Under the pieces are notes generated by a model. It made no database searches. It was not told the origin of the DNA and saw only the letters and a program-made list of their open reading frames with translations. The position numbers and the translations under genes were made by a program. From the IMG/VR virus record IMGVR_UViG_3300035492_000219, positions 1 through 38,837 of that record: DNA of 38,837 nt; one strand, given 5' to 3'. The first letter of the stretch is position 1, and the number at the start of each line of letters is the position of its first letter. This stretch comes from a virus. Positions 1 to 38,837 of this stretch are shown piece after piece.

Positions 1-493
1 CAATTACCTTGCCTTTGCTGCCCGCCAGGGTCGCCGCATCCTGCGCGGCCTGCTGCGCCGCCACCGCCTTGCCGTCCGCGGTGGAAACGCTATTGGTCAG
101 CGAGGTGATCGACTGGCCCTGGCTGGTTAGTGTGTTTTCGGTGCTGGTCACGCGCGTGTCGAGCGCCTGCAGCGCCGAGGCGTCCGCCTTGGTTGCCAGC
201 CCCGACAGCGCATTGGCCGCAGCCGCGGCGGCATCCGTTGCCACCTTGTCCGTCACCGCCGTCCACGCCGAGCCGTTCCAGCGCTTGGGCGTGTTCGCGT
301 TGTTGGTGGTGTCGATCCACAGGTTTTGTGCCAGCCGGTCAGCCGCTGCCGGCGCGGGCGACTGGACAATTACCTTGCCTTTGCTGCCCGCCAGGGTCGC
401 CGCATCCTGCGCGGCCTGCTGCGCCGCCACCGCCTTGCCGTCCGCGGTGGAAACGCTATTGGTCAGCGAGGTGATCGACTGGCCCTGGCTGGT
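1..493. repeat. Exact tandem coding repeat, 366-bp (122-codon) unit, inside J
   Basis: 1-127 = 367-493 = 38592-38718; 1-246 = 38592-38837; 112-366 = 38337-38591 (read by eye). The unit encodes ..VQSPAPAAADRLAQNLWIDTTNNANTPKRWNGSAWTAVTDKVATDAAAAAANALSGLATKADASALQALDTRVTSTENTLTSQGQSITSLTN.. Confidence 0.9.
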
Positions 494-3373
494 CAGCGTG
501 TCGCCCTGCTGGGTGATAGACGCTGTGTTCTGCTGCACCTGGGCGGCCAGCGCATTGGCCGACTGGACCACCTGCCCGATATCCAGCCAGTAAGTGGCAT
601 TCGGCGGCGCGGTGTTGACCGGAACCGCCTGGGCGGCCTGATACAGCCGCTGCCCTTGGCGCACGGTGTCGCCCTGGGCATAGGTGCGCGTCGGCTCATA
701 CGCCAGCGCGTCGACCGTCTCGGCCACCTGTTGCGCCAGGCTGTCGACTTCGGCATTGATGGCCGCCAGGTCGCTCTCCACGCTCTCGCGCAGGGTCGCC
801 ACCCGCGCCGCCACCGTGCCCGGCACCGTCGCCGGGCCGTCGATCAGATTGATTCGCTCGGCCAGGTGCTGGCCGAGCTGGGTCTCGCTGATCTTCCCGG
901 CAATGGCGCCCAGCAGCTTCGGAACCTCGACACTGGCCTGCCCCATCACCCAGGCCGACCACGGCCCCACGTTGCCGCTGCGGTCCACCAGCCGCGCGCG
1001 GAAATGGAAGGTCGCCCCGGCCGCCAGGCCGGTCATGGTGTGGCTGTTGTTCGGGTAGGCGTAGTCGCCCAGGTGCATCACGCCGGTGGCGCTCGGGCTG
1101 GTGTTGTATTCGATTTCGGTGCGCTGGGCGTCGCTCGCACCCTCGGCCGGGAAGGCCCAGCCCAGACGAATGCCAAACTCCAGCGGCGTGGCCGTCAGCG
1201 AGGCCAGCGCCGGCGGGGCGCCCTCCTTGCCATTGAGCTGGGTTTCCGCGCTGTAGGCGGCCAGCGAGGCCACGCCAATCGGGTTGACCGCACGCACCCG
1301 CACCAGATAGCGCCCGGCATAGATGCCCGGCACCTCGAAGCCCAGGGCCGCGGTGCGCGGCACCGCCAGCCATTGGCCGTCATCCTTGCGCCATTCGGCT
1401 TCATAGGCCACCGCACCCGCCGCGGCCTCCCATTGCGCGCGCAGGGTGGTGATGGCCAGGCCCTGATCGACATAGCTGAAACTCTCCAGCGTCACGCCCG
1501 TGGGTGGTGCCTGCACACCAGCCGGCACCACGGATACCGGGCGCTGCTCGATGCGCGCGCCGGTGTCGACCGCGCCGTGTTTGCTCGGGTCGTACTGCAC
1601 CCCGACAATCTCGAACACGCCCGCCTCGGGCCGGCTAACCCGCGTCACGCGGTAGAGCTGAATGGCCAGGTCGGCGGCGTCCAGCGCCCACACCGATTGT
1701 GCCCGCGGCGGCTCGCTGTACTCGGTCGTTACCGTCACGGTGCGGCCGGTCACGCTCTGCACGGTGCGACCTTCGGCCACGCCGCTCGGCAGGTTCAGCA
1801 CCAGGCGGTCGCCGACCTGCACCTGGGCGTCACGGTCGAGGGTGATCTGCCGGCCGGACACCAGACTGATACGCCCACCCAGCGGGCGACCCGCCAGCAG
1901 CTCGTCGGCCACGCCAATGACCCACCCCGGCCGGGCCAGCACGCCGTCGAGCCCCACGCGAAAGGTCACCATGCGGTCGGCGGCGTTGGTCAGCAGCAGC
2001 CAGCGGCCGCGGCGGTTGGCCTCGCTGCGGCGGGTGCAGCCGATGGCGGTAATGTCCTGCTTGTTCACGCCGTAGCGGCGCACCAGGGCGTTATCGGATA
2101 CCGGCTCCACGTCGGACTGGTAGGCATTGGCCGGCTCGTCGTAGCTGACCAGCGCCATGCTGTAGCGGTTCTTCTGCTGGCCGCCGGCGTAGCTGAACCC
2201 ACCCACCACGCCGTTGGCGCGGCTGTACACGTAGTCGACCGCGCGCGGCATGTCCGCCTCTGCGACCATCTGCGTGCCGTCCCAGTAGGTCATGCCGCGG
2301 AAGATCGCCGCCAGGTCGCGTAGCACCGTCCAGGCCTCGGCCTGGCTTTGGATGTACACGTTGCAGGTAAACCGCGGCTCCTGCCCACCCTGCCCGTCTG
2401 GCACCAGTTCGTCGCAATACTGGGCGATGCGGTACAGCGCCCACTTGTCCACCTGATCGGCCGTGATGCGCCGGCCCAGGCCGAAGCGCTTGGCCAGTAC
2501 CACGTCATACCAGACCCAAGCCGGGTTATCCGTCCAGGCCCATTTAAAGGTGCCGTCCCATAGCCCGACATAGGCGCGGGTGGCGGGGTCGTAGTTGCTC
2601 GGCACGCGGATCACGCGGCCGCGCGTCTCGACTGCAACCTGCGGGATGCTGTCGAACTGCGCGGCGTCGAACTCCACATACAGCAGCGTGGTGTTGGGGT
2701 AACGCAGCTTGGCGTCGATGACCTCGGTGATGGCCTCCACGCGCATGGTGTCGGCCACCTTGTTGCCGTCCTGATTGGGCGTCAGGCGGCGGACGCGCGC
2801 TTGCCAACTGCTGCCGGCCGGCAGGTCGACGCGGTGCGTGCGCTCATATTTTGTGGTGGTCTTGCCGTTGACCGTGTAGGTGCTGACCTCCTGCCAGCTG
2901 CCGCCATCGGTGGCCACGTCAATGGCGTAGTCGATGCGGTAGCCCACCACGTCGCCGTTGTCTTTCTGCTGCTGCAGTGCGGGCCACGACAGGCGCAGGC
3001 GCACCGCCGACAGCTGCGGGTTGGTGATCGCACGCACCCAGGGCGTACCGCTGCGCAGCTCGACGCCGACGCCGATTTCGTTTTCGACCGCCGGCAGGCC
3101 GGCGATGTGTTCCTGATGCGGCGTGCCGGGGCGGAACTCCCAGCGCACGCCGGGGAAGTTCTCGCCGCCATCCGGGCCAATCAGCGGCGTGCCGTCCAGA
3201 TAGATATCGCGCCCATCCAGCGTGCCGGCGGCGTTGCCGGCAAACTCGCCCTCACCCAGCGCGATCAGGATTTTGGCGTATGCGGTCGACTGCACACTGT
3301 CGGGCGCCTCCACCGGGGTGCGCGGTTTCTTCTCGCCACCCTTGCGGCCGTGAATCGCTGCTGCTGCGCTCAT
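1..3373 (-). CDS. Tail tip / host-specificity protein J (lambda gpJ-like), first ~1124 codons; 3' end runs off the window at position 1 and continues at 38837
   Basis: Own translation from ATG 3373: MSAAAAIHGRKGGEKKPRTPVEAPDSVQSTAYAKILIALGEGEF..WEFRPGTPHQEHIAGLPAVENE..YRIDYAIDVATDGGSWQEV..RVPSNYDPATRAYVGLWDGTFKWAWTDNPAWVWYDVVLAKRFGLG.., the conserved gpJ N-terminal pattern. No stop down to base 1, so it is absent from the ORF track. The frame matches ORF 37099..38835 through the end identity (position 1 = 38592; 38835-38592 is divisible by 3). Confidence 0.88.
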   Translation of the reverse strand, partial: MSAAAAIHGRKGGEKKPRTPVEAPDSVQSTAYAKILIALGEGEFAGNAAGTLDGRDIYLDGTPLIGPDGGENFPGVRWEFRPGTPHQEHIAGLPAVENEIGVGVELRSGTPWVRAITNPQLSAVRLRLSWPALQQQKDNGDVVGYRIDYAIDVATDGGSWQEVSTYTVNGKTTTKYERTHRVDLPAGSSWQARVRRLTPNQDGNKVADTMRVEAITEVIDAKLRYPNTTLLYVEFDAAQFDSIPQVAVETRGRVIRVPSNYDPATRAYVGLWDGTFKWAWTDNPAWVWYDVVLAKRFGLGRRITADQVDKWALYRIAQYCDELVPDGQGGQEPRFTCNVYIQSQAEAWTVLRDLAAIFRGMTYWDGTQMVAEADMPRAVDYVYSRANGVVGGFSYAGGQQKNRYSMALVSYDEPANAYQSDVEPVSDNALVRRYGVNKQDITAIGCTRRSEANRRGRWLLLTNAADRMVTFRVGLDGVLARPGWVIGVADELLAGRPLGGRISLVSGRQITLDRDAQVQVGDRLVLNLPSGVAEGRTVQSVTGRTVTVTTEYSEPPRAQSVWALDAADLAIQLYRVTRVSRPEAGVFEIVGVQYDPSKHGAVDTGARIEQRPVSVVPAGVQAPPTGVTLESFSYVDQGLAITTLRAQWEAAAGAVAYEAEWRKDDGQWLAVPRTAALGFEVPGIYAGRYLVRVRAVNPIGVASLAAYSAETQLNGKEGAPPALASLTATPLEFGIRLGWAFPAEGASDAQRTEIEYNTSPSATGVMHLGDYAYPNNSHTMTGLAAGATFHFRARLVDRSGNVGPWSAWVMGQASVEVPKLLGAIAGKISETQLGQHLAERINLIDGPATVPGTVAARVATLRESVESDLAAINAEVDSLAQQVAETVDALAYEPTRTYAQGDTVRQGQRLYQAAQAVPVNTAPPNATYWLDIGQVVQSANALAAQVQQNTASITQQGDTLTSQGQSITSLTNSVSTADGKAVAAQQAAQDAATLAGSKGKVIVQSPAPAAADRLAQNLWIDTTNNANTPKRWNGSAWTAVTDKVATDAAAAAANALSGLATKADASALQALDTRVTSTENTLTSQGQSITSLTNSVSTADGKAVAAQQAAQDAATLAGSKGKVI

Positions 3374-3385
3374 GCGGGAACCTCG

Positions 3386-3416
3386 AAAACGAAAAAGCCC
3401 GGCGCATGGCCGGGCT
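3386..3416 (-). terminator. Intrinsic-terminator-like hairpin between gpI-like and J genes
   Basis: Minus strand: AGCCCGGC-catgc-GCCGGGCT followed by TTTTTCGTTTTC, then an RBS-like GAGG and the J ATG. Confidence 0.5.
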
Positions 3417-3438
3417 CAGGAATGGGAAGCGTGCGGGT

Positions 3439-4005
3439 TTACAGCTGGTCTTCGGCGTAGATGCCGCCGGAAATGATCGCCCCGCCGATGCGGCGTTTGC
3501 CGTACAGCAGGCCGACCGGGTTGCCCTGGGCGGTGGTGTTGACCGCGCCGCCGAAGGCATACGACGGTTTGTTTTCCGGCGCCTCACGGCCGGACAGGCC
3601 GGTCGCCTGCGGCGCGAGCATCTGCGCCACGCCACCGGCCATCATCCCGGCGCCGGCGGCGACCAGCCAGCCTTGGCCGGTGTACACGCCCACCGCCACC
3701 AGCACCGCGCCCAGCACGGTGGAAAACACGCCGCCGTTCTTGCTGCCGATGATCACCGGCGCAATGCGGATATCCCCCTGCCGGCCTTCCAACTGCAGCT
3801 CCTGCTCGGTCAGGTTGCGCCGGCCGTAGAACACCGCATACGTCAGCCCACGGTCGGCGCTGGTGGCCAGGTATTGCTCGAAGCCCGGCAGCTGCGCGCA
3901 CAGCGCGCGGATCGCTTCGGCCGGGCTCGCCACGGCCAGGCGAAACACCCGGCCGAAGCGCGCACCCAGCACGCCGTAAAGGCGCACGGTTCGCAGTTGA
4001 TTCAT
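3439..4005 (-). CDS. Tail assembly protein I (lambda gpI-like)
   Basis: MNQLRTVRLYGVLGARFGRVFRLAVASPAEAIRALCAQLPGF.. with a Gly/Ala-rich hydrophobic C-terminus. The ATG at 4005 overlaps the gpK stop (ATGA). The upstream part of track ORF 3439..4257 overlaps gpK and is not believed. Confidence 0.8.
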   Translation of the reverse strand: MNQLRTVRLYGVLGARFGRVFRLAVASPAEAIRALCAQLPGFEQYLATSADRGLTYAVFYGRRNLTEQELQLEGRQGDIRIAPVIIGSKNGGVFSTVLGAVLVAVGVYTGQGWLVAAGAGMMAGGVAQMLAPQATGLSGREAPENKPSYAFGGAVNTTAQGNPVGLLYGKRRIGGAIISGGIYAEDQL

Positions 4006-4718
4006 GCCGCCCCCTTGTAGCGCACCACCAGCGCGGTGCGGTCCAGCCAATAGCCGCCATATGCCACCCGGCCACTCGGGCGGCCATACAGGTGGTGCAG
4101 CAGCTGTCCATCGCCCAGGTACACGCCGCCGTGGTTCACCGCCGGCGCCTGCACCTGCATCAGCACCACGTCGCCGCGCTGCAATGGGCCGCTGGCCACC
4201 TCGAACCCAGCCTGCTCGAAACGCTCCAGATAGTGGTTTTCGCCGTTGTGCCACCAACCATCCGCGCGCGGAAAGTCGGGCAGCGTGATGCCGTATTCCA
4301 GCTGGTAAAAGCCGCGGATCAGCCCGTAGCAGTCATAGTCGGTGCCATGCACGAACGGCCGCCCCTCCAGCGGGGCCACGCCCTCGCACGGGGTCAGCAC
4401 GTTAAGGTCACCCTCGGGCCAGCTCAGGATGTACCAGGGCACCGTGCCGGCGTTGCACAGCGCCACGTCGGCGGCACTGGCGCGGCTGGTAGCGTCGGGG
4501 TGCGAATGCACCACGCCGACGATGGTGCCCAGGTCTTCGGCGGCGGCGTAGTCGGCCGGGTCCAGCTCGAAGCGATCGGCACCGGCGGCGCCCTCGGCCA
4601 GGTTGCGGCAGCGCACGTACTGCTGGCGGCGGCCGATCTGCACCACCAGGCCGCAGCACTCGCGCGGGTACTCGGCCGCGGCGTGCGCGCGAACGGCTTT
4701 CAGGATGTGTTTACGCAT
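4002..4718 (-). CDS. Tail tip assembly protein K (MPN/JAB plus NlpC/P60 domains, lambda gpK-like)
   Basis: N-terminal ..EYPRECCGLVV..HSHPDATSRASAADV (JAMM-like HxH..S..D) and a C-terminal NlpC/P60-like region. Position between L and I. Confidence 0.85.
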   Translation of the reverse strand: MRKHILKAVRAHAAAEYPRECCGLVVQIGRRQQYVRCRNLAEGAAGADRFELDPADYAAAEDLGTIVGVVHSHPDATSRASAADVALCNAGTVPWYILSWPEGDLNVLTPCEGVAPLEGRPFVHGTDYDCYGLIRGFYQLEYGITLPDFPRADGWWHNGENHYLERFEQAGFEVASGPLQRGDVVLMQVQAPAVNHGGVYLGDGQLLHHLYGRPSGRVAYGGYWLDRTALVVRYKGAA

Positions 4719-4721
4719 GGG

Positions 4722-5471
4722 TCATTGCCTCAGCAGGCCGGCGCCTGGGAAGCCGCCGTGTGGCAGCGGGTTGTTCGCACCGAAGCGCGCTTTGCAGTCG
4801 CTCAGCAGGCCGCCGCAGCGGTCGCGGGCGGGGTCATCGGTTGGGTTGCCGTCAATGTCGGCCACCGGGCCGCCGGTGTAGCCGCAGTCGGGGCCGCGGT
4901 ACTCGCCGCACATGGCCCAGTCGCACAGCGCGTGAATCTGCCGCGCCGGGATCTTCTGCCCCTGCACGTCCGCCGGCGAGCTGAGCGCAAAGGCCACAGC
5001 CTCGCCGTTCTCGCCGGTCTTCTGCTCGATGTACCAGACCTGGGTTTTTTCCTGGGTCGGGTCCGCGGTCGGGTTGCCGCCCTCGAAGTTCACCGCGTCG
5101 AGGTAGTGGGCAAAGGTGGTACGCACCGTGACGCGCGCCTGGGCCAGATCGGCGAACAGCAGGCACAGCGCGCTGATCGAGCCGTCGAGGTTGCCCACCG
5201 TCAGCGTCGGCGAAGGCGCCGGGCCGTCGCCGTCCAGCGCGAAGCCTTCGGCCTTGACCGGCCACGCGCGGTATTCCTGCCCCTGCCACCAGATCGACTT
5301 GGCGCGCAGCGGCTCGGGGCTGTTCGCCGCGGCCGCCAGCTCGGCCGGCGTATGCGCCACGGCGTGGCCATGAAAGTGCAGTACATCCCCACCGAACGCC
5401 GTGCAGTCGATGACGTACAGCGTCACCTCGGCGCCGGGTTCCAGCAGCTGCACATCGGCATTGATGCCCAT
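4722..5471 (-). CDS. Minor tail protein L (lambda gpL-like)
   Basis: [22 protein letters not shown].. and a Cys-rich C-terminus ([29 protein letters not shown]), as in gpL Fe-S ligands. Confidence 0.85.
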
Positions 5472-19448: not shown

Positions 19449-19940
19449 TTATCCGGTCTTGCCTCCGCGCAGCAGCTCGAAGGGGTTTTTCTTCTCGCCA
19501 GTGCCGGCCGGTTTCAGCCTGGCCCGCGACGAAGGGTCGAGCCCGAGCGCGGCGCCGAACGTGGCCACCTGCCGCAACGACTCGTTGGCGACGGTGCAGG
19601 CCGGGTTCTTCATCGGGCCACCCTGGGCGCCGGTGACCACCAGGCCGTTCCTGTCGATGCAATCCTGCGCCTCGCGCCACCGCTGGTAGGCCATACAGAA
19701 GGCTTCGAGGTTGTGCAGATCGGTGGCCGCCATGATCTTGGTGGCCACCAGCCAGGGCGCGACGCTGCGCCAGATTTCGGCGGCGATATCGCCCATCCAC
19801 TCGGGCGGCTCGGGCACCTCGGCCAGTGCTTCGGGCGCCGGTTCGTTCTTCGGCAGGGCGCGCTTGCCGGCGTTGCCCTGCAGCAGTTTCAGCGCGGTCG
19901 GCTTCGGCTTCCGACCGCCTCCCTTGGCGCGCTGGGTCAT
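19449..19940 (-). CDS. terS: Terminase small subunit, P27 family
   Basis: MTQRAKGGGRKPKPTALKLLQGNAGKRALPKNEP..LEAFCMAYQRWREAQ..GLDPSSRARL is the family pattern. Confidence 0.88.
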   Translation of the reverse strand: MTQRAKGGGRKPKPTALKLLQGNAGKRALPKNEPAPEALAEVPEPPEWMGDIAAEIWRSVAPWLVATKIMAATDLHNLEAFCMAYQRWREAQDCIDRNGLVVTGAQGGPMKNPACTVANESLRQVATFGAALGLDPSSRARLKPAGTGEKKNPFELLRGGKTG

Positions 19941-19952
19941 CCTCGACGCTCC

Positions 19953-19984
19953 TGCGTTATTGCGTTATTGCGTCATATGACGCA
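19953..19984. promoter_or_regulatory. Array of four contiguous 8-bp boxes (TGCGTTAT TGCGTTAT TGCGTCAT ATGACGCA) abutting the terS RBS
   Basis: Read directly. The last two boxes form a near-copy of the palindrome TTGCGTCATATGACGCAA. The array starts 13 bp upstream of the terS ATG. Confidence 0.7.
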
Positions 19985-20205
19985 CTCCCCTAGCCGCCAC
20001 CCTGGGATTTTTTATTTCGCGGGCGTAAGAAAACGATTGGGGACGCGGTGTTTAAGCGCCGAACCTCCAGAGATTTACCCACCCCCTACCCTTCGGCGAC
20101 GTTCGGCACCGTTTCGGTGCATTTTCGACGCGCGTGCAGTTCGGGGCCGGCAGCCCTGCAAGGCTCGGCGCTCATGTGTTCATGCGGTGAATTGATGGCG
20201 TTTCG
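19985..20205. other. Non-coding HNH-terS gap, expected location of cos
   Basis: HK97-type HNH/TerS/TerL systems cut cos between the HNH and terS genes. The exact cos ends cannot be read from the sequence. Confidence 0.3.
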
Positions 20206-23086: not shown

Positions 23087-24370
23087 CTAAACGGCGCTCG
23101 GGGCCGCGTGGTTATTGGCTTCGGGCGGGGTCAGCATTGCGACCCGTCCGGGTTCTGTCTCGGTGGCAAAAAAAGAGAGGCCCCGCGGATCGAGGTAGCA
23201 ATGCCACCGTTCCAGGGCGTCGCGTTTCAGGCTCTGCGCATGGGTGTGGATATAGGCGGCGTCCAGATCATCGAGCGCGTGGTTCAGCAACAGCTCACCG
23301 ATCAGGTAATCGACGCCCAGGTCAGCCCACATTGAGCGGGCGATCTTGCGCAGGTCGTGGCTGGTCCACTCCCCATCCGCAATACGGGTAAATGCTGCTT
23401 GCGCTTGATCGGCTGAAAGCGGCTCGCCCTTGCCATTGGGGAACAGATAAACACCCTGATAACCCCTTGCCTTCTGATGGCGACGATAGGCAGTCAGGAT
23501 CGCGCACAGCTGGCGGGTGATCGGCAAACGGTGGTCGCTGCGGGTCTTCGTATCCTCGGCGGGCAGGAACCACTCCCCATCCTGAACAAGGGTGATATTC
23601 CCCCACTTGGCGACACGGGTTTCGCTGATACGGGTGCCATGGCACAGCATCATCAGAGCCAGCATTGAATCGGCCGGGCGCGTCGACCACAGCTCGGCCA
23701 GGCGATCCAGCAGCGCGGGCAACTGCTGCGGGCGCAGCGCGGTGCCCTTCGGGCGGATCGGCGTGCTGATGAAGTCGGTGAACACCATGTCCGCCAGCGG
23801 GTTGCTGGTCAGCATCTTGAGTTTGTGCGCCTGTTTGAATGCCTTTTTCAGCACCCCGAAGGCCTGCCGCGTGTAGGCCAGGCAGCACACCTCTTGCATT
23901 GGGCAGATCAGGCGCTCGTCCAGCGCCGCGCGATCCACCGCCAGCAGGCGCAGCGAGCCCAGGCGCGGCAGCAGGTGACGGGCCGCCACAGAACGCACGG
24001 TCGCTTTGTAATTCTTCGAGACGCTACGGGTACGGGCCAGGCGGTCGACGTACCATTTCAACAGGTCGGCAACCACTTCCCAGCCGGAAACCGTCACCAC
24101 CGTGGCCGGGTCGGCGGTCAGCTCGGCCAGCTTCTTCGGCAGCAGCTCCAGGGCGGCGCGCACGGAAAGGTCCGGCCAGTTACCCAGCTTTACGGACGGG
24201 CTCTTGCCGTTGACGTGGCGGATGATGTGCCAGGAAGCGCGCGAGTGGTCGCCGGTGAAGCGCAGCAGCAGCGCAGGCGTTCGCGGGTCGCGCAGGTTGC
24301 GCACGTCGAGCTGGGCGGCGTACCGCTTAACCTCGGCCTCGCTGAACTTGATATGAAGGGTTTTTCTCAC
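23087..24370 (-). CDS. int: Tyrosine integrase, P4-like
   Basis: N-terminal arm-type domain (..LLLRFTGDHSRASWHIIRHVNGKSPSVKLGNWPDLSVRAA..) and catalytic motifs ..CHGTRISE.., ..HDLRKIARS.., ..LLNHALDDLDAAYIH. Confidence 0.88.
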   Translation of the reverse strand: MRKTLHIKFSEAEVKRYAAQLDVRNLRDPRTPALLLRFTGDHSRASWHIIRHVNGKSPSVKLGNWPDLSVRAALELLPKKLAELTADPATVVTVSGWEVVADLLKWYVDRLARTRSVSKNYKATVRSVAARHLLPRLGSLRLLAVDRAALDERLICPMQEVCCLAYTRQAFGVLKKAFKQAHKLKMLTSNPLADMVFTDFISTPIRPKGTALRPQQLPALLDRLAELWSTRPADSMLALMMLCHGTRISETRVAKWGNITLVQDGEWFLPAEDTKTRSDHRLPITRQLCAILTAYRRHQKARGYQGVYLFPNGKGEPLSADQAQAAFTRIADGEWTSHDLRKIARSMWADLGVDYLIGELLLNHALDDLDAAYIHTHAQSLKRDALERWHCYLDPRGLSFFATETEPGRVAMLTPPEANNHAAPSAV

Positions 24371-24475
24371 GGTCGGGGCTCCAGATAGGCGCCCCGTGCC
24401 GGTCAGGCGGGGGCGCTTGGCCGCAACGCTCCCCTACCCATGGCAATGGGCATCGAATCGGAGAGAGTCGCGGAA

Positions 24476-24499
24476 TGCGTCAAAGCGTCAAAGCGTTAT
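24476..24499. promoter_or_regulatory. Three phased 8-bp boxes (TGCGTCAA AGCGTCAA AGCGTTAT) about 105 bp upstream of int
   Basis: Read directly in the 136-bp gap between the 24507 stop and the int start. Alternative reading: Int arm-type sites within attP. Confidence 0.55.
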
Positions 24500-28111: not shown

Positions 28112-28169
28112 TATTTCTGCTTTTTTCCACTTTGCGTGTATAGTTAAACGCAGATTTAACTAATGTCGG
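28112..28169. promoter_or_regulatory. Divergent cI/cro control region with an inverted repeat TGCGT-N10-ACGCA
   Basis: AT-rich gap with the inverted repeat at 28133-28152. Individual -35/-10 hexamers could not be assigned confidently. Confidence 0.55.
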
Positions 28170-28850
28170 GTGGCTGGCTACATGACGGACTTACGAAAGC
28201 TGATTGCGGGACGCATCCGCAAATGCAGAAAGGACAGCGGGCTTACCCTCACCCAGGCGGCGCAGCAGCTCTCGGCCATCTCCGGCGAAGCCGTGTCGTT
28301 GCCGCGGTTTTCCAATTGGGAAACCACCATAGAACCCAAAATCCCGAGCCTGCACCTGTTCCCCTATCTGGCAAAAATTTTCAACGTCTCGGCCGCCTAC
28401 CTGGCCGGCTTTGAGGACGTCCCGCGGCGCGACTTCGCCGACAGTGACTACGTGACCAGCGTGCGCACCATCGCGCTGCACGGGCAGCGGCTTGAGGTAG
28501 AGGGCGCCGACGACTCGCTCGCCTTTCGTCGGGCGTTCGCTGAAGAACTCGGCGTGCCCGTCGAGAAACTGCTGGTAATCAAACAGATCGACGACAGCAT
28601 GCGCGACACCCTGGGCCGCGGCGACCGGGCCGTCATTGACACACGGCAGACGCGCGTCAAGGGCAAAGACCTGTTCGGCCTGCTGGTCAATGGTGACGTC
28701 TGGCTGCGCTGGATACGCCCCGAGGTGAACGGCGCCTACACCATCGCCGCCGATGATTCAGACCAGTACCCCGACCAACAGCTGACGGCCGAGGAACTGG
28801 CAGACTTTCAGATAATCGGCCGCGTGGTTTCGCTTAACCTGCGCCGCTGA
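28170..28850 (+). CDS. cI: CI-like repressor (XRE HTH plus S24/LexA-type autocleavage domain)
   Basis: ..IRKCRKDSGLTLTQAAQQLS.. HTH. The C-terminal ..IDDSMRDTLGRGDRAVID..KGKDLFGLLVNGDVWLRW.. is S24 peptidase-like (Ser..Lys). An alternative ATG lies at 28182. Confidence 0.85.
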   Translation: MAGYMTDLRKLIAGRIRKCRKDSGLTLTQAAQQLSAISGEAVSLPRFSNWETTIEPKIPSLHLFPYLAKIFNVSAAYLAGFEDVPRRDFADSDYVTSVRTIALHGQRLEVEGADDSLAFRRAFAEELGVPVEKLLVIKQIDDSMRDTLGRGDRAVIDTRQTRVKGKDLFGLLVNGDVWLRWIRPEVNGAYTIAADDSDQYPDQQLTAEELADFQIIGRVVSLNLRR

Positions 28851-28945: not shown

Positions 28946-29251
28946 ATGAATAACGCAGTTGCTCACCAGGCCGCCGAGGCAGGCAGCCCGCTCTCGGTCT
29001 TCGACGAAGCCACCCGGCACTCGATCTGCCACTGCCTGCACCTGCAGGCCTCGTTTATGGCCGCCCTTGAAAACACCGCGGCCCGCGCGATTGAAACCGG
29101 CGACCATGCCGGCGCCCTCGAAGACATCGAGCGCATGGCCGGCGGTATCAAGGACAACCTGCGGCACCTGGCGCGCCTGGTGATCGAGGTCGAAACGACG
29201 CGCCCCCTTTCCCTGGTCAAGGACGGCCACCATGCACTCGCTCAACACTGA
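28946..29251 (+). CDS. Hypothetical helical 101-aa protein
   Basis: SD-like GGGAAAA precedes the ATG. Overlaps the next gene by 20 nt. No motif recognised. Confidence 0.55.
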   Translation: MNNAVAHQAAEAGSPLSVFDEATRHSICHCLHLQASFMAALENTAARAIETGDHAGALEDIERMAGGIKDNLRHLARLVIEVETTRPLSLVKDGHHALAQH

Positions 29252-29666
29252 CGACGTGATCGCCCTGCCGGGGCAGAGCCTCACCACGCTGGAACTGGCC
29301 GTGCTCGAAGGGCTGTCCAACGGCAACAGCCCGGCCGATATCGCAGCCGCCACCGGCAACAGCCCGGCCGCCATTCGCACGGCCGAACTGAACGCGCGCG
29401 ACAAGCTGGGCGCCAAAACTCACCCGCACATGATCGCCCGCGGCTTCGTGCTGGGCGTACTGCTGCCCCGCGCCCTGTGCCTGCTGGTAGCCCTGGCCAG
29501 CGCCATCGACCACGGCCCTGCTCAGCGCCTGCGCATGCCCCGCAACGGTCGCGCGCCGTCGTCGCTCGTGCGCAGCACCCGTGCCAGCAGCGGGCGCGGG
29601 CGTGGCGCGCGCGAATCCGTCGTGTTCCTGCAGGCACAGCTCGGGCAGCAGCTCACAGCCGCATAA
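29232..29666 (+). CDS. LuxR/GerE-type HTH protein with a hydrophobic segment and Arg-rich tail
   Basis: LTTLELAVLEGLSNGNSPADIAAATGNSPAAIRTAELNARDKLGAKTHPHMIARG matches the GerE HTH pattern, followed by LLPRALCLLVALASAI. No autoinducer-binding or receiver domain. Confidence 0.6.
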   Translation: MHSLNTDDVIALPGQSLTTLELAVLEGLSNGNSPADIAAATGNSPAAIRTAELNARDKLGAKTHPHMIARGFVLGVLLPRALCLLVALASAIDHGPAQRLRMPRNGRAPSSLVRSTRASSGRGRGARESVVFLQAQLGQQLTAA

Positions 29667-29766
29667 CGCAAGCGTCATTGCGTCATATCTATAAATAACG
29701 CTTGCGCCCTGCCATGGGGCGCCGGTACCCTGTGCGCGTTAAATAACGCAATGGCGCAATAACGCC
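29663..29766. promoter_or_regulatory. Two in-phase arrays of 8-bp boxes upstream of parA (candidate operator/centromere)
   Basis: 29663: ATAACGCA AGCGTCAT TGCGTCAT ATCTATAA ATAACGCT. 29743: ATAACGCA ATGGCGCA ATAACGCC. The two array starts are exactly 80 bp (10 x 8) apart. Confidence 0.7.
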
Positions 29767-29785
29767 AGCACAGGGAGCGCTCAAC

Positions 29786-30430
29786 ATGGCACAGACAATC
29801 GGAGTGGCCGCACAAAAGGGCGGCGTAGGCAAGAGCGGGGAATGCCGCGCCATTGCCACCACCTACGCCGCAGCAGGTTGGGCGGTCAGAATCTGCGATC
29901 TGGACATCGACCAGTCCACCTCACACAACTGGAACATCCGCCGCGAGCATTACGGCATCGAGCCACGCCTGCAGGTCGAGACGTTCGGCAGCTTTGCCCG
30001 CGCCTTCAAGAGCATCGGCGACGACGTAGACCTGGCGATCTTCGACGGCCAGCCGCGCGCCAATGCCGGCACCGTGGAAATGGGCATGGCGGTTGACCTG
30101 CTCATTCTGCCCACCGGCACCGGGCTCGATGATATGGAGCCGACCGTGTTGCTGGCCAACAGCCTGGTCGAACAGGGCGTGCCGGTTGAAAAGATCGCCA
30201 TTGCCCTCTGTCGCATCGGCGACAGCGGCAAGGAGCTGGTCGAGGCCCGCGCCTACCTGGGCGCCACCCCTTACCACCTGCTGGGCGGCGCCCTGTACGA
30301 AATGACCGCCTACCGCCGCGCCCATGATGCCGGCCTGTCGATGGTTGAAACCCCCTACCCCTCGCCCCGCGAGAAGGCCGCCGCCCATGTGCAGGCCATC
30401 GTCGACCGCCTGGCCTATCTGACCAAATAA
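29786..30430 (+). CDS. parA: Partition ATPase, small type Ib ParA (ParF/delta-like)
   Basis: Deviant Walker A AAQKGGVGKSG; 214 aa; ..LDIDQSTS.., ..AIFDGQP.. motifs. Confidence 0.88.
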   Translation: MAQTIGVAAQKGGVGKSGECRAIATTYAAAGWAVRICDLDIDQSTSHNWNIRREHYGIEPRLQVETFGSFARAFKSIGDDVDLAIFDGQPRANAGTVEMGMAVDLLILPTGTGLDDMEPTVLLANSLVEQGVPVEKIAIALCRIGDSGKELVEARAYLGATPYHLLGGALYEMTAYRRAHDAGLSMVETPYPSPREKAAAHVQAIVDRLAYLTK

Positions 30431-30466
30431 CGCTATAACGCTTGCGTGCTATAACGCATTAACGAA
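30427..30466. promoter_or_regulatory. Array of 8-bp boxes between parA and the RHH gene
   Basis: ATAACGCT ATAACGCT TGCGTGCT ATAACGCA TTAACGAA, contiguous and overlapping the parA stop codon. Confidence 0.7.
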
Positions 30467-30477
30467 AGGTATCACTC

Positions 30478-30744
30478 ATGACCACAATCAAAGTTCCCGC
30501 CCCCAAGCGCCCGGCCGGCAAAGGCACCCCGCCTACCACGGCGCGGGCCGTAGGCGTAGTCGGTAACAACATCGAGAAACCCGAAACCGGCGCCACCGTG
30601 CCGTTTAACAAGCGGCTGCCGGTCGAGCTGGTAAAAGAGGTTAAGCAGTTCTGCCTCGACCATCAGACCAACGCCACCAAAATGCTGATCGACGCGCTGC
30701 GCGAGTACATGGATAACCGCGGCGCCGGTAAGGCCCGCAAGTAA
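30478..30744 (+). CDS. Ribbon-helix-helix centromere-binding/regulatory protein (ParG/omega-like)
   Basis: 88 aa. Pro/Gly/Lys-rich flexible N-tail, then VPFNKRLPVELVKEVKQFCLDHQTNATKMLIDALREYM (beta-alpha-alpha). Confidence 0.75.
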   Translation: MTTIKVPAPKRPAGKGTPPTTARAVGVVGNNIEKPETGATVPFNKRLPVELVKEVKQFCLDHQTNATKMLIDALREYMDNRGAGKARK

Positions 30745-31267: not shown

Positions 31268-31288
31268 TTTCGCTGTTACCCGTAACGC
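31268..31288 (+). repeat. 21-bp exact direct repeat, copy 2 (TTTCGCTGTTACCCGTAACGC)
   Basis: Identical to 22492-22512. Lies in the convergent gap, immediately 3' of the 31289..31525 stop. Confidence 0.85.
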
Positions 31289-33146: not shown

Positions 33147-33437
33147 TTATTGATCCTGGCCAAGCGCGCGACGCTCGGCGGCGTCAAGGCGCTTCCATAG
33201 GCCTGCCAGCAGCTCACCGCGCGGGCCGGTGGTGTCATCCCAGGCAGCACCCACGGCGGCCTTGAGTTCCTGCAGCTCGGCCAGGGTCACGTCACCCAGC
33301 GGAATGCGCCGGCCGGCAAGCCGCTCCGCGCGGCGCTTCTTGCGTAAGCGCTCCTGCCGCTGTGCGGCAGTCAGCGGGCGCTTGCAGGCCTCGATCAAAC
33401 AGAGGGTGCCGGGGTCGTTGGGGTCTTGCATGGCCAT
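33147..33437 (-). CDS. Hypothetical 96-aa protein with a basic central stretch
   Basis: ..AAQRQERLRKKRRAERLAGRR.. First gene after array 33467-33498. Confidence 0.5.
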   Translation of the reverse strand: MAMQDPNDPGTLCLIEACKRPLTAAQRQERLRKKRRAERLAGRRIPLGDVTLAELQELKAAVGAAWDDTTGPRGELLAGLWKRLDAAERRALGQDQ

Positions 33438-33466: not shown

Positions 33467-33498
33467 TGCGTCATTGCGTCATATGACGCAATGACTAT
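33467..33498. promoter_or_regulatory. 8-bp box array TGCGTCAT TGCGTCAT ATGACGCA ATGACTAT containing the perfect palindrome TTGCGTCATATGACGCAA
   Basis: Read directly. The 28-bp core TTGCGTCATTGCGTCATATGACGCAATG is identical to that at 33762-33789. Confidence 0.75.
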
Positions 33499-33508
33499 TT
33501 ACGGTGAA

Positions 33509-33727
33509 TCACAGCCGCCCGGCGTTGGCCTCTTTCGCGCAATGCTCGGCAGCAAGCTTGACCAGCTTGGTGACTTCACGCACCACGTTCGGCACTTCCT
33601 TGGTCAGGGCCGACAGCGCCAGTTCGTAGGTCTGGCCGTTGGTTTTCGCCAGCAGTTTCAGGGCGTCCTCAATGGCGATGGCCAGAAAGCCAGGGGAGGC
33701 AAGGAAGTTGTCGGCGGTCAGGGTCAT
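33509..33727 (-). CDS. Hypothetical 72-aa helical protein bracketed by identical box arrays
   Basis: MTLTADNFLASPGFLAIAIEDALKLLAKTNGQTYELALSALTKEV.. No motif recognised. Confidence 0.55.
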   Translation of the reverse strand: MTLTADNFLASPGFLAIAIEDALKLLAKTNGQTYELALSALTKEVPNVVREVTKLVKLAAEHCAKEANAGRL

Positions 33728-33762: not shown

Positions 33763-33794
33763 TGCGTCATTGCGTCATATGACGCAATGGGTAT
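33763..33794. promoter_or_regulatory. 8-bp box array TGCGTCAT TGCGTCAT ATGACGCA ATGGGTAT (second copy)
   Basis: Read directly, 36 bp upstream of the 33727 start. Confidence 0.75.
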
Positions 33795-36085: not shown

Positions 36086-37102
36086 CTACGCAATGAACAG
36101 CCGCGCAAACACCGCCGGCACGTTGCCCTTGTTGGTGAACACCGTGCCGCCTGGGCCTTGCTGGTAAATCTCGGCGTAGTTCTGCGCGTAGTTCAGGCTG
36201 ATCGCCGTGGGCGAGGCGCTGGGCGAGGTGGCCGACAGTGCCGGCAAGGTAAACGGGTTGATCATCACGTACTCGTCTTCTGCCACGTCGTAGCTCGCGC
36301 GCCAGTAGTAGTTCCCCGCCAGCGTGCCGCCTACCGCGCCGACATAGGCCCAGCTCTGCACCACGTTGGTGACCACCGCAGGCGCCGCGCCCGAGTCGTA
36401 CACGCGCGCAGCTGCGCCGTCCCATATGCGCAGCCCGTAGGTAGCCGATGCGGTTGGCGCGAACGCCGCGGCAAACCACTTGCCGCTGGGCAAGTAGCCG
36501 ATGTTTCGGGTGCTGATGCGAAAGCCCGTCCAGTTCCCGGCGCTGCCGAGGATCGACATGGCGTAATACAGTTCCGTGCCGCTCGACGTTGACGGGCGAA
36601 TGAACACGCACGGCGGTTCCTGGGTGGTAATCGGCTGCGGAAAACTCACCGTCACCGTCATGGTGGTGCCCTGATAGGTGCCACTGCTCAGCACCGAAAG
36701 CCGGGGTTTCTCGGCGTCGATCTGCACATAGCCATCATCATTGACCGCCAGGAAGCCATAGGAGCCCGAAGGCCCTGCAGCGCCGGCGGCTGGGCGGAAC
36801 TTCATCACCAGAATGCGCACCGTATTGCGCGTGTCGTTCGCGCTCGGTGCCGCCGGGTGGTAGCGCGTCACCTGCACGTTGTTGGTCTGCACCACGATAT
36901 GCGGCATAAAGCTGTTATCGACCGTGCCGGTCAACGCGAGCGCAACCGCGCAATGGTTGCTCGCGTTGCCGGTAATCGGGATGTTCAGTACCGACGTGCT
37001 GGCGAAGTTCACCAGCACATTCGCCACGATCTGGTAAGTGAACGTCGACGTGTCCAGCGTCAGGCGCCCTTGCTCGTCCCAGGTTCTAAGCCCTCCGATC
37101 AT
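36086..37102 (-). CDS. Hypothetical tail protein encoded after J (338 aa)
   Basis: Start overlaps the J stop (ATGA at 37099-37102). Beta-rich, Ser/Thr/Gly/Ala composition. Function unknown; possibly receptor-binding accessory. Confidence 0.6.
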   Translation of the reverse strand: MIGGLRTWDEQGRLTLDTSTFTYQIVANVLVNFASTSVLNIPITGNASNHCAVALALTGTVDNSFMPHIVVQTNNVQVTRYHPAAPSANDTRNTVRILVMKFRPAAGAAGPSGSYGFLAVNDDGYVQIDAEKPRLSVLSSGTYQGTTMTVTVSFPQPITTQEPPCVFIRPSTSSGTELYYAMSILGSAGNWTGFRISTRNIGYLPSGKWFAAAFAPTASATYGLRIWDGAAARVYDSGAAPAVVTNVVQSWAYVGAVGGTLAGNYYWRASYDVAEDEYVMINPFTLPALSATSPSASPTAISLNYAQNYAEIYQQGPGGTVFTNKGNVPAVFARLFIA

Positions 37103-38837
37103 GCTGTTAAATCCCCCGCCTGAATGCGCAGTACGTTGTTGCCGTCCCAGAACTTCAAGGCACGGTTCGTCAGCTGCATTCGCCCCTGCCCGGCTACGCT
37201 GCCGTTGATTTCAAAGGTGCCGCTCTTGTCCAAGCGCCACCCCTGCTGCCCGGCCACGTAGTCGGTCGATTGCAGCGCCGTGGCGATCTTCGCCATGTCG
37301 ATGGTGCCGTCACCGATCACCGCCGAGTTGATGAACACCTGCCCGCCCTGAATCACGAACGGCGTGGTGATCTGCCCGTTTGCCACGTTGATGACCGCGA
37401 ACCGATCCGCCTGGAACAGCACCTGGCTTTGCATCCCCTGCGGCGTGTTCTCGATGCCCAGCCCCATGCCGGCGGCGTAATACTGGCCGTTACTGGTAAC
37501 GCCCAATTTCACCGAGTACATGGCCTGCAGCTTGCCGTCCGTGGCGGCCTGCGCCTGGCTGACGGTCTGCACCGAGGCCGAGGCGCTGTCGGCCTTGGCC
37601 TGGGCGGTGTCGATGCGCGACGACAGCGCGCCGTCCGCATCGGCACGGGCCGTGGCCTCGCTCTGCAGGGCGGCGGCGATGTCGTTGTTCACCTTGGCGC
37701 TCAGCGTCTCGACCTGCGACGCCAGCGCGCTGTCGGCCGTCGCGCGGGCCGTCTGCTCGGCGCTGATCGCCGCGGCGTTCTGCCCGACCTGGGCCGTTAC
37801 CGTGTCGATGCGCTGCGCAAGGGCCATGTCCTCGGACGCGCGGGCGGATTGCTCCGACCACACGCCCGCCAGCACTGAAGTCGCGCCGGCATTCCAGCTC
37901 ATATCACCCGCCAGTGGCGGGTTGATCTGAGCGGAAATACCGTCGATGCGACTGGCCTGGCTGGACAGCTCGCCCTCGGTGCTGGTTACGCGGGTATCCA
38001 ACGAGCTGATGGCACCGGCCTGGGCCGTGTTCACGCTCTCGGCATCGCTAACACGGTTGGTCAGCGAGGTGATGGACTGACCTTGACTGGTCAGCGTATT
38101 GCCCTGCTGGGTCACCGTGTTGCTCAGGCTGTTCAGCGCCTCGGCAGTGGCTGCCGCGGGAATGCGGGGGTCTGTGGTGTCAACCCAGGCCGTTCCGCTC
38201 CACCGGCTTTGCTTGTTGTTCTGCCCGGCCGTGGTATTGATCCACAGGTCGCCCGCCACGAGGTTCGCCGTGGGCGCCGTGGCCTGCCGATAGGTGCGGT
38301 TCTTCGTGCCGACCGTGTTGGTCAGCGAGGTGATGGACTGGCCTTGGCTGGTTAGTGTGTTTTCGGTGCTGGTCACGCGCGTGTCGAGCGCCTGCAGCGC
38401 CGAGGCGTCCGCCTTGGTTGCCAGCCCCGACAGCGCATTGGCCGCAGCCGCGGCGGCATCCGTTGCCACCTTGTCCGTCACCGCCGTCCACGCCGAGCCG
38501 TTCCAGCGCTTGGGCGTGTTCGCGTTGTTGGTGGTGTCGATCCACAGGTTTTGTGCCAGCCGGTCAGCCGCTGCCGGCGCGGGCGACTGGACAATTACCT
38601 TGCCTTTGCTGCCCGCCAGGGTCGCCGCATCCTGCGCGGCCTGCTGCGCCGCCACCGCCTTGCCGTCCGCGGTGGAAACGCTATTGGTCAGCGAGGTGAT
38701 CGACTGGCCCTGGCTGGTTAGTGTGTTTTCGGTGCTGGTCACGCGCGTGTCGAGCGCCTGCAGCGCCGAGGCGTCCGCCTTGGTTGCCAGCCCCGACAGC
38801 GCATTGGCCGCAGCCGCGGCGGCATCCGTTGCCACCT
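37099..38837 (-). CDS. Tail tip / host-specificity protein J, C-terminal ~578 codons (5' part lies at 1..3373)
   Basis: Repeat units (TSQGQSITSLTN..), coiled Ala/Gln-rich region and the C-terminal ..YSVKLGVTSNGQYYAAGMGLGIE..LFQADRFAVIN..PFVIQGGQVFINSAVIGDGTIDMAKI.. tip-attachment pattern. The apparent M at 38835 is an internal GTG. Confidence 0.88.
   Translation of the reverse strand, partial: VATDAAAAAANALSGLATKADASALQALDTRVTSTENTLTSQGQSITSLTNSVSTADGKAVAAQQAAQDAATLAGSKGKVIVQSPAPAAADRLAQNLWIDTTNNANTPKRWNGSAWTAVTDKVATDAAAAAANALSGLATKADASALQALDTRVTSTENTLTSQGQSITSLTNTVGTKNRTYRQATAPTANLVAGDLWINTTAGQNNKQSRWSGTAWVDTTDPRIPAAATAEALNSLSNTVTQQGNTLTSQGQSITSLTNRVSDAESVNTAQAGAISSLDTRVTSTEGELSSQASRIDGISAQINPPLAGDMSWNAGATSVLAGVWSEQSARASEDMALAQRIDTVTAQVGQNAAAISAEQTARATADSALASQVETLSAKVNNDIAAALQSEATARADADGALSSRIDTAQAKADSASASVQTVSQAQAATDGKLQAMYSVKLGVTSNGQYYAAGMGLGIENTPQGMQSQVLFQADRFAVINVANGQITTPFVIQGGQVFINSAVIGDGTIDMAKIATALQSTDYVAGQQGWRLDKSGTFEINGSVAGQGRMQLTNRALKFWDGNNVLRIQAGDLTA
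38337..38837. repeat. Copies of the 366-bp J repeat at the right window end
   Basis: 38337-38591 = 112-366; 38592-38837 = 1-246. Near-identity with a few mismatches extends to about 38319. Confidence 0.9.

Follow-up and report, generated by a model that had tools for sequence, protein, structure and literature searches.

We analysed a 38,837-bp stretch of viral DNA (IMG/VR record IMGVR_UViG_3300035492_000219; the window) that carries a partition (par) locus, in which the ATPase gene parA is followed by orf88, a gene for an 88-residue small protein. Seven arrays of contiguous 8-bp repeats are found in the window. Three of them belong to the par locus, and four are located at other operons, including those of the small terminase subunit (terS) and a tyrosine recombinase (int). 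In the explanation that we favour, the phage is probably episomal and orf88 would bind all of the arrays, coupling partition to terS, int and accessory genes. We regard this explanation, which draws on sequence comparison, as probable.

Each unit of the arrays consists of 8 bp, with a GCGTYA/TRACGC core and an AT-rich spacer, and the units are contiguous in direct and inverted orientation. Read on the + strand, they are designated F (TGCGTYAT) or R (ATRACGCA). Arrays were defined as at least three hits of the 6-mer GCGTYA/TRACGC with a gap of at most 16. The genome contains 7 such arrays; 1000 dinucleotide shuffles gave 0.004 on average and never more than 1. All 7 are intergenic, with two beginning on the last codons of the preceding gene, and the distance between neighbouring hits within arrays is always 8 or 16. 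Outside of the arrays the 6-mer occurs 51 times (47 in coding sequence), which corresponds to the chance level of 47.9, so the boxes are not equally frequent and phased in coding DNA. The exact sequence TGCGTCAT/ATGACGCA is present in 10 copies, 9 of them in intergenic arrays, and ATAACGC in 13 copies against 2.6 expected. Two lone units, at 28950 and 33070, were treated as chance occurrences. The initial annotation had proposed intergenic enrichment and 8-bp phasing as a check, and the 8-bp units that it had located are all present. The same boxes also occur at 19953, 24476, 33467 and 33763, as it had proposed; the genes that it called early, at the last two sites, are small ones in a variable region that follows the tail genes. 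The spread of the arrays is aptly called genome-wide, since the 38,837 bp of the window make up a complete circular genome: a 1717-codon frame on the - strand, a gpJ-like tail gene, is open across the end-to-start junction (37099-38837 joined to 1-3415). Open reading frames on the + strand at 9-3829 were rejected as genes, as they are the antisense of this tail gene.

The parA gene (29786-30430, + strand) encodes a protein of 214 residues with a deviant Walker A motif (QKGGVGKS, residues 10-17), as the initial annotation had described. The protein matches Pfam CbiA/AAA_31/MipZ and the ParA-like family phrog_164, and scores 68 bits against NCBIfam ParA_partition, which is under the family cutoff. 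Its length, the deviant Walker A motif and the lack of an N-terminal DNA-binding domain are those of type Ib partition ATPases (approximately 200-220 residues). Two phased, conserved arrays of short repeats are found upstream of the gene, as is also typical of type Ib systems. The distal array (29663-29710) contains 6 units, R F F x R F', and is kept in the related contigs L001, L004, L008 and L009. Its last unit supplies the -35 hexamer of a putative parA promoter, TTGCGC-N18-TACCCT (29702-29731, + strand), which was read by eye from the sequence. Relatives retain the hexamers TTGCGC (29702-29707) and TACCCT (29726-29731) but have diverged in the intervening spacer. The proximal array (29735-29766; 4 units, F R R R) lies downstream of the -10 hexamer, ahead of the parA Shine-Dalgarno sequence, and is kept in relatives as well. 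All hits from 29664 to 29760 share one common 8-bp register. The phase across the two arrays, noted in the initial annotation, is thus held over approximately 100 bp, and the 96-bp span of the arrays is constant in relatives despite diverged sequence between them. The distal array is a candidate centromere and operator, and the proximal array a candidate operator. A spacer array (30427-30466; 5 units, R R F R R) occupies the gap between parA and orf88, ending 11 nt before the ATG. It is kept in relatives, and an array at the same position is also present in Vibrio-type phages, a Shewanella locus and the plasmid L108.

The orf88 gene (30478-30744, + strand) is located directly downstream of parA, and its product is a candidate centromere-binding protein and repressor. 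The N-terminal tail is disordered and basic, with K10 and R11 followed by GKGTPPT, VVGNN and KPE. The C-terminal part consists of a β-strand, VPFNKRLP (41-48), and helices 49-61 and 65-81. The tail motifs (K/R, GKG-PP, VVGNN and KPE) are conserved among homologues and would fit a role in stimulation of the ParA ATPase and plasmid stabilisation. No family in Pfam or NCBIfam and no annotated PHROG matches the protein, for which just 8 close homologues were found. A profile built from them, compared with solved structures, matches the CopG-family ribbon-helix-helix protein 9kkd_A (E=1e-4) and 2kel (0.06) over residues 40-82. By hhalign, orf88 is related to a wider family of small proteins (98.5% probability, E=4e-15), whose profile also matches ParG (1p94, E=0.039), SvtR, ArtA and CopG. 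The ribbon-helix-helix signature and basic tail that the initial annotation had read from the sequence are therefore borne out by profile matches to solved ribbon-helix-helix proteins, and orf88 is, on these matches, a ribbon-helix-helix protein of an uncurated family. With the predicted strand-helix-helix arrangement, they indicate that a ribbon-helix-helix protein is encoded directly downstream of parA, as in type Ib systems.

The locus resembles ParF/ParG of the Escherichia coli plasmid TP228 (centromere parH, operator OF): there too, the gene after that of a small ParA encodes a small ribbon-helix-helix protein whose N-terminal tail is flexible, and the repeats have an 8-bp period. To our knowledge, ParG has no sites outside of the par locus; the window has four further arrays at other operons. 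The placement of the arrays at parA, next to the -35 hexamer and over the start region, corresponds to the OF/parH layout of ParG. The box itself differs, being ACTC in TP228 and ACGC in the window, and orf88 is not a member of the ParG family by sequence: it has no Pfam match at E-values up to 10, and only the family profile reaches 1p94. TP228 ParG recognises tetramer boxes in mixed orientation with 4-bp AT-rich spacers between them, and the ATPase gene is preceded by two arrays of these, one distal and one proximal (PMC3130281). The comparison with ParG boxes and spacers made in the initial annotation matches this published description.

The outlying arrays are positioned 5' of genes. The terS array (19953-19984; 4 units, F F F R) ends 12 nt before the terS ATG (19940, - strand) and abuts the Shine-Dalgarno sequence. 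The downstream gene, terS (19449-19940, - strand), matches phrog_83 with E=1e-53. The array is kept in L098 and L106, and is replaced by a TAACGAA array in L104, a relative with a swapped box. A conserved element (19999-20023; CCCGCGAAATAAAAAATCCCAGGGT when read on the - strand) lies approximately 15-25 nt upstream of the array. L098, L106 and L104 have it too, and it may represent a cos site or a late promoter. Since the array is placed between this element and the terS start, the position of cosB in lambda, it might be regarded as a packaging signal, a cosB-like terminase site whose likeness to the par box is secondary. However, its units are identical in sequence and phasing to those of the par arrays and switch to the par box of L104, and the same boxes are present at sites unrelated to packaging. 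We consider a packaging signal highly improbable.

The int array (24476-24499) contains 3 direct units, F F F, 105 nt upstream of the int start codon. The int gene (23087-24370, - strand) encodes a tyrosine recombinase of 427 residues (phrog_1, E=4e-44; PF00589 in homologues). The array is kept in L001, L004, L009, L106 and L102, L104 has its own box there, and Aliivibrio phage H905 carries an array approximately 100 bp before int. The int leader (24431-24459) contains a hairpin, CCCAT-GGCA-ATGGG, beside TAGGGG, which is kept in L001, L004, L106, L102, L104 and L109 and may be an attP core or an int control element.

The remaining two arrays, G and H, are near-copies of each other, each with 4 units, F F R R'. 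Array G (33467-33498) forms a 26-bp palindrome, 29 nt before the ATG of a 96-residue gene (33147-33437, - strand). It embeds the promoter-like sequence TTGCGT-N17-CAAAAT, kept in relatives as TTGCGT-N17/18-CA.AAT. Array H (33763-33794) is located 35 nt before the ATG of a 72-residue gene (33509-33727, - strand) and embeds TTGCGT-N18-AATAAT, which is also promoter-like and also kept in relatives. Relatives keep this cassette before different genes. If transcribed, the palindromic arrays G and H would form strong hairpins (z -5.4 and -6.1), which speaks for RNA elements in 5' leaders. Structure is not common to all arrays, though: the par and spacer arrays show none that is significant (z -1.7 and -0.3), the int leader (z -2.3) folds downstream of the direct-repeat array, arrays with only direct units cannot pair, and there is no Rfam match. 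Selfish or chance repeats are excluded by the statistics and the conservation. An explanation of the arrays as RNA elements or as such repeats is thus barely credible.

Altogether, arrays are found 5' of five transcription units, with the promoters there inferred by eye. The gene-proximal unit, read in the sense direction, is of the R type in 6/6 arrays of the window, in 5/5 arrays of L104 and in 10/10 clear cases in Vibrio phage VPHZ6, where some of the R-proximal arrays stand between late structural genes. An iteron role was considered and is unsupported, since the units are 8 bp long, in mixed orientation and at gene starts, and no Rep gene was found.

Comparison with relatives links the outlying arrays to the par locus. 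In the close relatives L001-L009, L098, L106 and L102, arrays with the same box are present at int, terS, par and the small-gene region. The flanks of these shared arrays, and even the downstream genes, differ. The small protein is 69-95% identical in relatives with arrays at the same sites. L104 and L105 have the same backbone (71% identity for Int and 55% for TerS), a different small protein (strand VPMNFAVP) and a par operator built of TAACGAA. TAACGAA arrays abut the terS ATG, precede int by approximately 130 bp and stand before the gene that precedes int. In total, 5 TAACGAA arrays are found against 0.32 expected, and there are no GCGTYA arrays.

The same pattern is observed at a larger distance. 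H905 and VPHZ6 encode ParA proteins 46-48% identical to that of the window, together with homologous small proteins. The par box is TTCTTTAA in H905 and of the TAACGAA type in VPHZ6. Each phage carries its own box elsewhere, near int included, in 4 arrays (0.3 expected) and 7 arrays (0.4 expected), respectively. The VPHZ6 (L011) arrays, at 2493, 3480, 5885, 9582, 14827, 29101 and 30062, lie 0-50 nt before start codons in sense orientation. They are located within late and early operons, one of them in the 25 bp that separate the capsid gene from the gene after it. Saprospiraceae loci, and likewise the plasmids with related par modules, have only ParA and the small protein in common with the window, yet they contain extra arrays. 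Dispersal of the arrays is lineage-specific.

Other contigs carry different modules at the same place. L107 lacks this small protein and such arrays; at 4323-5282 it has another par cassette, in opposite orientation and with a different ribbon-helix-helix protein (90 residues). L109 (par 2867-3810) has a third specificity, with a TTCGCTAA box. In view of these cassettes, the par slot looks like an exchange point on a shared phage backbone. L001 (10794-10804), L104 (2933-2943) and L107 (11978-11988) have a palindrome, GCGTTACC(N)GTAACGC, where the par operon ends convergently, whatever the par box. The window holds at least the GTAACGC half of it, at 31282-31288. This palindrome is probably a terminator or another signal and not a par site.

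A scan of reference genomes anchored on ParA returned 80 loci, and a member of the small-protein family follows ParA in 66 of 93 loci. Short phased repeats precede the parA genes of the family, such as perfect TTAACGAA runs in the Shewanella locus. A profile of the narrow subfamily found 41 clusters among 1.84 billion representatives. The family scan used a single 6-mer, which is too strict for degenerate arrays and understates dispersal, in the window included. Across the family, the class of the β-strand tracks the class of the box. Strands of the type ..LNFK.. (N-x-K), as well as PMNFAV of L104, are found with the box ACGAA. The strands ..FNKR.. of the window and ..MNLR.. of a Pseudomonas avellanae plasmid (N-x-R) are found with ACGC, ..LQ(V/L/F)(K/R).. 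(Q-x-K/R) with CATG, and ..FATRV.. (A-T-R) with CTAG. From this we infer that the residue aligned with R46 may read the fifth base of the box. The covariation of box and strand, together with the presence of each relative's own par box in its outlying arrays, supports the binding of all seven arrays by one ribbon-helix-helix protein, in agreement with the initial annotation. The boxes were not taken for host-factor sites, since even within a single host group they change along with the par module.

Several observations weigh against the proposed explanation. The AlphaFold2 monomer of orf88 shows an extended segment followed by two helices (49-61 and 65-81), with low confidence (pLDDT 56.6). 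The outlying arrays contain only 3-4 units. A strict sigma-70 scan found no promoter at any array, including the putative parA promoter. In L109, there is no array before int within the 12 kb examined. Simple promoter occlusion explains neither the terS array, which adjoins the Shine-Dalgarno sequence, nor the VPHZ6 arrays inside late operons. As occlusion does not explain every case, a roadblock or another mode may operate. Finally, the immunity-par block of L104 is diverged overall (identities of 39% for CI, 40% for Cro and 47% for orf144). The L104 swap alone therefore does not single out the small protein, since CI, Cro and orf144 differ too.

This last point has to be considered with the gene order. 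The cI gene (28170-28850, + strand; Peptidase_S24 match) is divergent from a cro-like gene and is followed in a single + strand string by orf101, orf144, parA and orf88. The product of orf144 (29232-29666, + strand; 144 residues) has a weak match to the LuxR/GerE helix-turn-helix, a match to phrog_3282 ('sigma factor') and a hydrophobic C-terminal half; its homologues travel with ParA in Pseudomonas and Vibrio-type phages. The boxes might thus be bound by another protein of the immunity-par block (orf144, CI or Cro), with the small protein binding part of them or none. Homologues of all three are found along with ParA in Pseudomonas and Vibrio-type phages, the three proteins of L104 differ from those of the window, and orf144 has the weak GerE-like match. 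However, contiguous 8-bp direct and inverted units are typical of ribbon-helix-helix proteins and not of helix-turn-helix dimers. The box tracks the strand of the small protein in unrelated contexts, including plasmids and Saprospiraceae loci without orf144, and L107 has an orf144 homologue (53% identical) without the arrays. The cI-cro spacer (28141-28162) has its own palindrome, TAGTTAAA-N6-TTTAACTA, without 8-bp boxes, which is likely the CI/Cro operator and distinct from the boxes. The Saprospiraceae and plasmid loci, the cI-cro palindrome and L107 single out the small protein beyond what the L104 swap can tell, and binding by another protein of the block is very unlikely.

In the mechanism that we propose, one orf88 dimer would occupy each 8-bp unit, with the β-ribbon reading the GCGTYA/TRACGC core, and neighbouring dimers would coat contiguous arrays cooperatively. 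The two in-register arrays that flank the parA promoter, together with the spacer array, would serve as centromere and autoregulatory operator. The orf88 protein made in the lysogen would also bind the arrays at terS, int and the two small-gene operons, leading to repression or block. Maintenance of the plasmid state would thereby be coupled to the recombinase, packaging and accessory genes. It is possible that the outlying arrays act as extra centromeres too.

The outlying arrays could instead be mainly additional centromeres, on which partition complexes would load around the genome, with no important regulatory role. The dispersed centromeres of N15 are a precedent, and the element is seemingly episomal. 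Furthermore, parS of pSM19035 consists of the same kind of arrays at several loci (PMC9499535), and the centromere activity of TP228 tolerates box rearrangement (PMC3130281). On the other hand, the arrays have a fixed orientation and lie 0-105 nt before start codons, neither of which a centromere would need, and G and H embed promoter-like hexamers. This constant orientation near start codons favours a function in gene expression over a pure centromere. Full activation of ParA in pSM19035 takes at least four contiguous repeats (PMC9499535); arrays of up to three repeats activate it poorly and those of four need more protein. The outlying arrays, with their 3-4 units, would therefore be weak centromeres at best. 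We find a mainly centromeric role unlikely, although it is compatible with the regulatory explanation, and the two are not exclusive.

The genome is laid out as in a temperate siphophage, of the HK97/lambda-like kind and with a Pseudomonas-type host. The late block on the - strand contains terS, terL, portal, protease, capsid and tail genes. No tRNA gene was found in the window and no replication gene was identified there, while an integrase is present. Clusters of Int at least 57% identical to that of the window are all located on contigs of up to 56 kb, nearly all of them up to 44 kb, whereas clusters at most 52% identical are found in Mb-scale chromosomes. The small contigs with Int of at least 57% identity include NCBI isolate assemblies of Pseudomonas aeruginosa, Azotobacter beijerinckii and Pseudomonas sp. 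The contigs of relatives are 37-39 kb long and differently permuted, L104 and L105 among them. The small Int-bearing contigs and the permuted relatives fit an episomal phage-plasmid, and the phage probably persists as a plasmid. The Int data point to an unrecognised group of Pseudomonas phage-plasmids of roughly 37-39 kb that carry a tyrosine recombinase. The recombinase may serve in integration or in dimer resolution.

The host was inferred from Int homologues, because a scan of genome contigs found no ParA more than 51% identical. A megablast search with the par region found no match among 50,697 phage records. A metagenome scan with the Int alignment yielded two short contigs only, and an IMG/VR scan for the 16-bp palindrome returned one true relative (L098) and nine chance matches.

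Partition proteins that also act elsewhere in their genomes have been described in other systems. N15 is a linear phage-plasmid with scattered sopC sites, and its SopAB system is of type Ia, with a large helix-turn-helix ParB and palindromic sites. The binding sites of the N15 partition protein are reportedly linked to late gene expression, going by the title of an article from 2008 by Ravin et al. that is cited in PMC11652158. As a probable phage-plasmid with scattered candidate partition sites, the window recalls N15, and it differs in the protein type, which is helix-turn-helix in N15 and ribbon-helix-helix in the window. In RK2, KorB/IncC combines a partition protein with a global repressor that acts at many operators; KorB is a helix-turn-helix ParB of a conjugative plasmid and its operators are 13-bp palindromes. 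With delta/omega of the Inc18 plasmid pSM19035 (Firmicutes), the window shares the use of one ribbon-helix-helix protein and of arrays at several operons. The omega repeats are 7-bp heptads (WATCACW) in arrays of 7-10 on a plasmid, compared to 8-bp GCGTYA units in arrays of 3-6 on a tailed phage. Omega targets copy control, partition and toxin-antitoxin genes, in place of terS, int and small-gene operons, and orf88 has no Omega_Repress Pfam match and is not a sequence member of that family. Omega is a ribbon-helix-helix ParB whose contiguous direct and inverted repeats at several operon promoters are both operators and centromeres (PMC9499535).

By sequence, the closest systems in a defined context are the par modules of plasmids of the P. 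syringae group, such as P. avellanae p4_tig8 (NZ_CP026566), with 62% identity for ParA and 47% for the small protein. The P. avellanae protein has the strand VPMNLRVP (N-x-R), and the same GCGTCA units are found upstream of parA, in the spacer and downstream of the small gene. Such modules are located on true plasmids, with both par genes annotated 'hypothetical protein', and the arrays are local except for one unit pair 5 kb away. In a limited search, we found no literature report of this small-protein family, nor of a tailed phage with such a layout.

A few plasmids (omega, KorB) are known to use a partition protein as a global regulator as well, as does one phage-plasmid, N15, with another protein type. 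Here, a type Ib ribbon-helix-helix protein from a family without curation seems to extend to operons of a tailed phage for packaging, recombination and accessory functions. As a tentative generalisation, which we hold with less than moderate confidence, the partition protein may be a second master regulator of the prophage state in Pseudomonas and Vibrio-type phage-plasmids. It would silence packaging, recombinase and accessory promoters through oriented arrays, and par exchange would recode the whole operator set, with N-x-R reading ACGC and N-x-K reading ACGA. The natural swap, in which the same backbone carries another protein and another box, makes the recognition code of these ribbon-helix-helix proteins directly testable and provides a model for an operator set that co-evolves with its regulator. 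It also offers a handle on apparently unnoticed Pseudomonas phage-plasmids of approximately 37-39 kb, including contigs of P. aeruginosa isolates.

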